A DNA stretch of 64,000 bases from Escherichia coli (GTDB lineage Bacteria > Pseudomonadota > Gammaproteobacteria > Enterobacterales > Enterobacteriaceae). The notes beneath the pieces were generated by a model, which did no database searches, was not told the DNA's origin, and saw only the letters and a list, made by a program, of their open reading frames with translations. The position numbers and the translations under genes are program-made. Positions 47,059 through 48,615 of this stretch are shown here, piece after piece; positions within the stretch are counted from its first letter, which is position 1, and the number at the start of each line of letters is the position of its first letter. Where the stretch lies: the NCBI RefSeq assembly GCF_050920415.1, contig NZ_CP169309.1; one strand, written 5' to 3'.

Positions 47059-48615
47059 TTGATCCCGGACGTATCACAGGCGCTGGCCTGGCTGGAAAAA
47101 CATCCTCAGGCGTTAAAGGGGATACAGCGTGGGCTTGAGCGCGAAACTTTGCGTGTTAATGCTGATGGCACACTGGCAACAACAGGTCATCCTGAAGCAT
47201 TAGGTTCCGCACTGACGCATAAATGGATTACTACCGATTTTGCGGAAGCATTGCTGGAATTTATTACACCAGTGGATGGTGATATTGAACATATGCTGAC
47301 CTTTATGCGCGATCTGCATCGTTATACGGCGCGCAACATGGGCGATGAGCGGATGTGGCCGTTAAGTATGCCATGCTATATCGCAGAAGGTCAGGACATC
47401 GAACTGGCACAGTACGGCACTTCAAACACCGGTCGCTTTAAAACGCTGTACCGTGAAGGGCTGAAAAATCGCTATGGCGCACTGATGCAAACCATTTCCG
47501 GCGTGCACTACAATTTCTCTTTGCCAATGGCATTCTGGCAAGCGAAGTGCGGCGATATCTCGGGCGCTGATGCCAAAGAGAAAATTTCTGCGGGCTATTT
47601 CCGCGTTATTCGCAATTACTATCGTTTCGGTTGGGTCATTCCTTATCTGTTTGGCGCGTCTCCGGCGATTTGTTCTTCTTTCTTGCAAGGAAAACCAACG
47701 TCGCTGCCGTTTGAGAAAACTGAGTGCGGTATGTATTACCTGCCGTATGCGACCTCTCTTCGTTTGAGCGATCTTGGCTATACCAACAAATCGCAAAGCA
47801 ATCTTGGTATCACCTTCAACGATCTCTACGAGTACGTAGCGGGCCTTAAACAGGCAATCAAAACGCCATCGGAAGAGTACGCGAAGATTGGTATTGAGAA
47901 AGACGGTAAGCGGTTGCAAATCAACAGCAATGTGCTGCAGATTGAAAACGAACTGTACGCGCCGATTCGTCCAAAACGTGTGACCCACAGCGGCGAGTCG
48001 CCTTCTGATGCGTTGTTACGTGGCGGCATTGAATATATTGAAGTGCGTTCGCTGGACATCAACCCGTTCTCGCCGATTGGTGTAGATGAACAACAGGTGC
48101 GATTCCTCGATCTGTTTATGGTCTGGTGTGCGCTGGCTGATGCACCGGAAATGAGCAGTAGCGAGCTTGCCTGTACACGCGTTAACTGGAACCGGGTGAT
48201 CCTCGAAGGTCGCAAACCGGGCCTGACGCTGGGTATCGGCTGCGAAACCGCGCAGTTCCCGTTGCCGCAGGTGGGGAAAGATTTGTTCCGCGATCTAAAA
48301 CGCGTGGCGCAAACGCTGGATAGCATTAACGGCGGCGAAGCGTACCAGAAAGTGTGTGATGAACTGGTCGCCTGCTTCGATAATCCCGATCTGACTTTCT
48401 CTGCCCGTATCTTAAGGTCTATGATTGATACTGGTATTGGCGGAACAGGTAAAGCGTTTGCTGAAGCGTACCGTAATCTGCTGCGTGAAGAGCCGCTGGA
48501 AATTCTGCGTGAAGAGGATTTTGTAGCCGAGCGCGAGGCATCTGTACGCCGTCAGCAGGAAATGGAAGCCGCTGATACCGAACCGTTTGCGGTGTGGCTG
48601 GAAAAACACGCCTGA
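47059..48615 (+). CDS. gshA: Glutamate--cysteine ligase
   Basis: 518-aa ORF; TTG initiation codon. Confidence 0.96.

Follow-up and report, generated by a model that had tools for sequence, protein, structure and literature searches.

Six near-cognate start codons in a 64-kb stretch of an Escherichia coli chromosome and the occurrence of the gshA TTG start across species

The stretch of DNA that was analyzed (64,000 nucleotides of Escherichia coli, called the window throughout) corresponds to about 2.798-2.862 Mb of the MG1655 chromosome in reverse complement, where K-12 carries the genes ygbJ to nrdE. This correspondence and the curated K-12 starts were obtained by mapping the MG1655 genes of the interval 2,798-2,866 kb onto the window. 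The DNA identity of individual genes to K-12 was mostly 94-98%. The strain MFDS1022581 (NZ_CP169399.1) was also compared, and all 13 of its genes that were included were 99.9-100% identical to the window. A stretch of 4 kb around the gshA start was matched in all complete E. coli genomes but one (5,425 of 5,426), and an identity of at least 99% for the positions 45000-49000 was found in only two of the 5,425 matching genomes. The divergence from K-12 was patchy: most genes were 94-97% identical, ygbI/ygbJ (99.5-99.7%), ygaZ/ygaH/mprA (99.1-99.6%) and csrA (100%) were nearly or totally identical, and pphB was only 90% identical. These results suggest that the window stems from a rare, divergent E. 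coli lineage with recombination patches.

The window contains several features besides the genes treated below. A two-gene islet, which is absent from K-12, lies between luxS and emrB, where the gap in K-12 is 63 bp. It encodes a 235-aa protein of an RNA-ligase family (PF09414), the gene of which has a 4-nt overlap with that of a 370-aa protein, in which a kinase-like domain (AAA_33) and a weak match to HD were seen. The islet resembles cassettes of the T4 Pnk/Rnl type for the repair or modification of RNA; PADLOC gave no match for it. Between hycI and ascB, a toxin of the HigB family (PF09907) and an HTH_3 antitoxin are encoded by genes with a 4-nt overlap, and this pair is absent at the same site of K-12. 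Furthermore, an intact gene for a 394-aa MFS transporter is present where K-12 has the pseudogene ygaY. The sRNA MicA (Rfam RF00078, 83.9 bits) has the same location as in K-12, between gshA and luxS. A gene for tRNA-Ser(GCU) is followed by four identical genes for tRNA-Arg(ACG), which are about 275 bp apart; ARAGORN also called two antisense "tRNA-Arg(TCG)" genes, probably artefacts, within the first and the second of the Arg genes. Lastly, PGAP annotated two short hypothetical ORFs (59 and 79 aa) in MFDS1022581, which have no Pfam match and are unannotated in K-12. The coordinates of all features are compiled in Table 1.

Table 1. Start codons, accompanying signals and further features of the window.
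Feature	Position	Strand	Remarks
ygbI TTG start codon	993..995	+	AAGGAG SD 981-986, 6-nt spacer; homologue N-termini align
Upstream in-frame ATG, rejected as ygbI start	963..965	+	longest ORF 963..1760, 10 codons over-long
Short hypothetical ORF	5210-5389	+	PGAP, MFDS1022581; 59 aa
hypE GTG start codon	8973..8975	-	4-nt GTGA overlap with hypD stop 8972-8974
hycB GTG start codon	12380..12382	+	stop 7 codons upstream, no alternative start
hycI GTG start codon	19186..19188	+	8-nt overlap (GTGACTGA) with hycH stop 19191-19193
HigB-family toxin and HTH_3 antitoxin	19824-20551	+	between hycI and ascB
Short hypothetical ORF	38596-38835	-	PGAP, MFDS1022581; 79 aa
tRNA-Ser(GCU) and four tRNA-Arg(ACG)	44717-45714	+	
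yqaA GTG start codon	46558..46560	+	4-nt GTGA overlap with yqaB stop 46559-46561
In-frame TAA closing the gshA frame	47029..47031	+	9 codons 5' of TTG; from the sequence
gshA SD GGGAGG	47048..47053	+	5-nt spacer 47054-47058; predicted duplex -11.0 kcal/mol
gshA TTG start codon	47059..47061	+	matches K-12 and PGAP; PDB 1V4G starts at the same residue
gshA CDS, glutamate-cysteine ligase, 518 aa	47059..48615	+	ORF list, K-12, PGAP, 1V4G
MicA sRNA	48625-48696	-	between gshA and luxS
Two-gene islet	49325-51141	-	between luxS and emrB
MFS transporter gene	56058-57242	-	ygaY pseudogene in K-12

Six of the 60 complete genes of the window (10%) have a non-ATG start codon, namely gshA and ygbI (TTG) as well as hycB, hycI, yqaA and hypE (GTG). 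Four of them had been named in the initial annotation and stood; the list was, however, incomplete, because yqaA and hypE were missing. In E. coli as a whole, 83% of the genes start with ATG, 14% with GTG and 3% with TTG (bioRxiv 10.1101/063800). Three of the six genes are part of the hyc/hyp hydrogenase cluster and yqaA adjoins gshA, and thus it might be thought that non-ATG starts are clustered here and follow a shared regional regulatory theme. However, the fraction of 10% is lower than the genome average of about 17% (binomial P(<=6) = 0.096, 60 genes), so that no enrichment was found, and an excess of TTG among the 60 genes was also not observed (P(>=2 TTG) = 0.54). In addition, the contexts differ, as coupled overlaps occur next to free-standing starts, and the six starts have no motif in common. 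A regional theme is so improbable that it can be set aside.

For all six genes the curated K-12 start was identical to the PGAP start in MFDS1022581, although PGAP/RefSeq annotations partly depend on the curation of K-12. All six codons lie in frame at the position where the N-termini of homologues begin, which was seen via PDB homologues for hycB, hycI and hypE. Each of the six starts is preceded by an SD at a distance of 5-10 nt or overlaps the stop of the preceding gene. The predicted SD energies were -11.0 kcal/mol for gshA, -9.3 for hycI, -8.0 for ygbI, -7.8 for hypE, -6.1 for hycB and -3.4 for yqaA; the difference in SD strength between the non-ATG and the ATG genes of the window was not significant (p = 0.066, with only six non-ATG genes). 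Entries for the six genes were also looked for in the start-site data of the TRAINSPOTTER supplements, and none were present.

For gshA, hycB, hycI, yqaA and hypE the region back to the upstream stop contains no in-frame start-type codon at all. Experimental N-termini at upstream ATG codons, which the initial annotation had named as the observation that would speak against its starts, are inapplicable to these five genes, because they have no upstream in-frame ATG. The starts that it had given for gshA, hycB and hycI coincided with the curated K-12 and the PGAP starts, and they were also backed by the lack of an alternative start codon, by solved structures and by homologues. The PDB sequences are weak independent evidence of the starts, because deposited sequences follow the annotation.

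The first example is hycB. The next ATG is at residue 34, and a start there would remove the first Fe-S cysteine cluster (C12-C22). Chain B of PDB 7Z0S comprises the complete protein counted from the GTG, and the alignment with the homologue 7QV7_A sets in at residue 2. In the case of hycI, PDB 2I8L is also full length from the GTG, the alignments with 3PU6 and 5ZBY, both homologues, begin at residues 3-4, and a start at one of the internal candidates, Met12/13, would remove strand 1. The next example, yqaA, has no recognizable SD, and its start rests on conservation and on the geometry of the overlap: of the 20 Enterobacterales loci, 19 had GTG, within the GTGA overlap with the yqaB stop, and the remaining one, Edwardsiella, had ATGA. 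The last of these four genes is hypE. The residues 5-14 of HypE, including the GSGG motif, align with HypE of D. vulgaris (2Z1T), and a start at Met15 would remove this motif. The E. coli HypE construct in PDB 2I6R starts at Met15 and represents an older gene model of 322 aa. The GTG start of hypE corrected this under-extended earlier model.

The hypE case illustrates that gene models do change, and the partial dependence of the PGAP/RefSeq annotation on K-12 curation points in the same direction, i.e., the real starts could be ATGs elsewhere and the TTG and GTG calls could have been carried over from old gene models. Yet five of the six genes leave no room for an upstream start, internal ATGs would cut conserved parts of GshA, HycB, HycI and HypE, and the codon position is conserved across genera for gshA, ygbI and yqaA. 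An annotation artefact is thus largely refuted, and we consider it highly improbable.

The gene ygbI is the only one of the six with a competing upstream start, and the initial annotation had called its TTG only probable. The upstream ATG, as a codon, is stronger than TTG and opens the longest ORF, and if it were used, the protein would comprise 265 aa and the TTG would be an internal leucine codon. However, an SD is absent in front of the ATG, in contrast to the TTG. The YgbI homologues from 17 taxa all start with MIPxER at the position of the TTG, and none has the extension of ten residues. Salmonella also has TTG as the start codon, whereas Serratia, Yersinia and Dickeya have GTG, so that this position is occupied by TTG or GTG in all five genera. 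The upstream ATG is absent or separated by a stop in the four genera other than Escherichia: an upstream in-frame start-type codon was found in none of them, and in Salmonella an in-frame TAA is located five codons 5' of the TTG. A start at the ATG is therefore very unlikely, and the TTG start of ygbI, with which the homologue N-termini and the DNA of four other genera agree, is now firm. The sequence TAGAAT at 959-964 overlaps the upstream ATG; a corresponding box, TAAAAT, is present in Salmonella, Serratia and Dickeya, but not in Yersinia. The TAGAAT box might represent a -10 element, although a scan for promoter consensus sequences 5' of ygbI did not report it.

Taken together, we assign a probability of about 95% to the view that the six codons are genuine, already annotated near-cognate starts of ordinary housekeeping and accessory genes of E. 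coli. These starts are already known from public annotation and, for gshA, also from the experimental literature. The observation belongs to the well-known class of GUG and UUG initiation sites, together with the known problem of ORF over-extension.

The latter was also analyzed. The initial annotation had listed 14 genes for which six-frame ORFs extend beyond the true N-terminus (fhlA, hycE, hypC, hypA, ascB, ascG, hydN, hypF, norR, mltB, recA, emrA, emrB and proX), and in all 14 cases the stretch from the upstream stop to the annotated start indeed contained an in-frame ATG, GTG or TTG. Two further genes were not in this list, pncC, in which a GTG precedes the start by one codon, and ygbI, in which the ATG precedes it by ten. 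Longest-ORF calls thus over-extend 16 of the 60 genes, i.e., about a quarter. Over-extension arises because the longest-ORF rule takes the first ATG, GTG or TTG after a stop, which is often located 5' of the real start; it is a mechanical result and not biology. Two starts were ambiguous when judged from the sequence alone. The start of ascG could be any of the ATGs at 23807, 23813 and 23816 (23807-23818), and emrB (52935-52946, minus strand) has a GTG one codon 5' of the annotated ATG. The spacing to the SD is better for this GTG than for the annotated ATG of emrB (6 nt versus 9 nt).

The gene gshA was chosen for a comparison across species. Its TTG is the sole start-type codon between the TAA and residue 31, the next ATG is at residue 79, and the alignments with homologues start by residue 25. 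From residue 1 to residue 100 the product does not differ from the E. coli GshA of PDB 1V4G. The predicted duplex of the SD with the anti-SD is the second strongest among the 60 genes of the window. The original gshA sequence paper is reportedly that of Watanabe et al. 1986. A conserved TTATGCT box about 35 nt 5' of the start (about 47019-47025) resembles a -10 element.

A motif scan of species-representative genomes yielded at least 120 gshA loci, and the N-terminus could be assessed in 109 of them. The motif is located about 150 residues from the start of GshA, and the start codon was thus not biased by it. Among the matches listed, the start at the homologous position was TTG in 54, GTG in 20 and ATG in 30 of the 109 species, and five were unassigned. 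TTG is therefore present in about half of the species, versus a background of about 3-4%; the counts ignore shared ancestry, and because of this they show persistence and do not prove selection. Upstream of the equivalent of residue 25, TTG was the sole candidate in 39 and GTG in 7 of the 109 loci (among the matches listed). Twelve further loci of the 109 had TTG or GTG but no ATG, so that this region was devoid of ATG in 58 of the 109 loci, again among the matches listed.

The distribution differed between taxonomic groups, with all of the following numbers referring to the matches listed. In the 29 Enterobacterales the start was TTG in 26 cases, GTG in three (Pantoea) and ATG in none. The Cellvibrionales-like species had 13 TTG, four GTG and one ATG, and both Leptospira loci had TTG (GTG 0, ATG 0). 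Only ATG was found in the Moraxellaceae (nine; TTG 0, GTG 0) and in the Orbales (three; TTG 0, GTG 0). The two Leptospira homologues (loci L035 and L068) are 44% identical to E. coli GshA, and TTG is their sole possible start. This TTG could have been acquired horizontally from a gammaproteobacterium, or it could have been retained independently.

The median SD energy was -11.0 kcal/mol for loci with TTG versus -5.0 kcal/mol for loci with ATG (among the matches listed). Neighbouring genes in the same loci kept ATG, i.e., luxS in 24 of 25 and yqaB in 18 of 19 cases among the matches listed. The start codon thus appears as a stable trait of the individual gene across genera, TTG for gshA, GTG for yqaA and ATG for the neighbours. 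The conservation of the gshA TTG extends far past E. coli, and its breadth is the only element of the analysis that is possibly new.

The block CGGGAGGTC-N3-TTG-ATC-CCG-GAC-GTA-TCA was nearly invariant in 30 Enterobacterales gshA loci among the matches listed, including the synonymous positions of codons 2-6. Such an invariance, and the presence of two GGA motifs 14 nt apart in the region 47047-47076, one of them inside the SD, could mean that the initiation region is also conserved for a trans-acting regulator, a GGA binder of the CsrA type or an sRNA, or for an RNA structure. A literature search for a link between CsrA and gshA found none. A candidate hairpin that would occlude the SD (CGGGA 47047-47051 with TCCCG 47063-47067) was rejected: the local fold, with an MFE of -9.5 kcal/mol, was no stabler than that of shuffled sequences (z = +0.76), and the variants in Pantoea break the candidate stem and do not compensate it. 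Covariation was not seen, because the sequence is invariant. A further layer of regulation of this kind is unlikely.

An SD of unusual strength next to a weak codon is in keeping with selection for a given level of expression or for sensitivity to regulation. Whether the UUG codon together with the invariant strong SD is an ancient feature, kept by selection in the Gammaproteobacteria, and not a quirk of E. coli, is in our estimation about an even bet. If true, gshA would carry a conserved translational throttle or sensor at the committed step of glutathione synthesis, which might respond to polyamines or to IF3. The set of six starts as such matters little and has a modest value as a worked example. 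Annotation, expression constructs and the setting of limits for 5' UTRs and promoters all require correct starts, which the public annotations already contain.

How these codons would act can be outlined from published work. Initiation at UUG and GUG was 10-100% of that at AUG in reporter assays (bioRxiv 10.1101/063800). The initiator fMet-tRNA reads UUG and GUG, so that the protein still starts with methionine, with a weaker initiation than at AUG. At free-standing starts with an SD (gshA, ygbI, hycB), the SD would place the 30S subunit and the weak codon would reduce the output. For gshA of K-12, the only one of the six genes with evidence from start-codon mutagenesis, the change of UUG to AUG increased the basal level of GshA-LacZ 3.0-fold and lowered the stimulation by polyamines from 2.4-fold to 1.1-fold (PMC4405209). 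Thus, in the window the UUG would be predicted to lower basal GshA synthesis about 3-fold and to confer responsiveness to polyamines, and the very strong SD would partly compensate for the weak codon. At yqaA, hypE and hycI, which overlap the preceding stop, the ribosomes are probably delivered by termination-reinitiation coupling, as judged from the geometry of the genes, and the identity of the start codon would matter less in these coupled cases.

A known example of a conserved suboptimal start that serves as a regulatory device, like that of gshA, is infC. Its AUU start enables autoregulation through the discrimination of start codons by IF3, a case that is also mentioned in bioRxiv 10.1101/063800. 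In contrast to gshA, the start of infC is the non-canonical AUU and senses the gene's own product, and such a feedback is not known for gshA.

The overlaps can be compared with translationally coupled gene pairs, which are characterized by -4 nt overlaps of the sequence ATGA or GTGA (PMC10666635). The pairs yqaB/yqaA and hypD/hypE have GTGA as described there, and the overlap of hycH/hycI comprises 8 nt. Seven other pairs of the window have ATGA, i.e., hycB/C, hycG/H, srlA/E, norV/W, RNA ligase/AAA, higB/antitoxin and srlD-type neighbours.

The closest relationship is that of gshA to the polyamine modulon. Stimulation of GshA synthesis by polyamines was reported in K-12 MA261 (PMC4405209). The gshA gene of that study (2015) is the same gene, with the same start codon, the same strong SD and the same 5-nt spacer as in the window. 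It is the K-12 gene, whereas the gshA of the window is 96.9% identical at the DNA level. Genes of the modulon are characterized by an inefficient start codon or a displaced SD, and gshA has the former in its TTG. This likeness concerns gshA; a response to polyamines is not known for ygbI, hycB, hycI, yqaA or hypE. A second member is also encoded in the window, emrR (mprA), which belongs to the modulon owing to an SD located 10 nt from the AUG (PMC4405209). A GAGG SD about 10 nt from the ATG (54781, minus strand) was found as described, and emrR and gshA are less than 8 kb apart. Other genes of the modulon have an inefficient UUG or GUG, namely cya, spoT, cra and uvrY as well as frr (PMC4405209), and in these, as in gshA, the near-cognate start is a translational throttle that is relieved by polyamines. 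The wide conservation of the gshA TTG was outside the scope of that study, and its breadth fits the published regulatory role.
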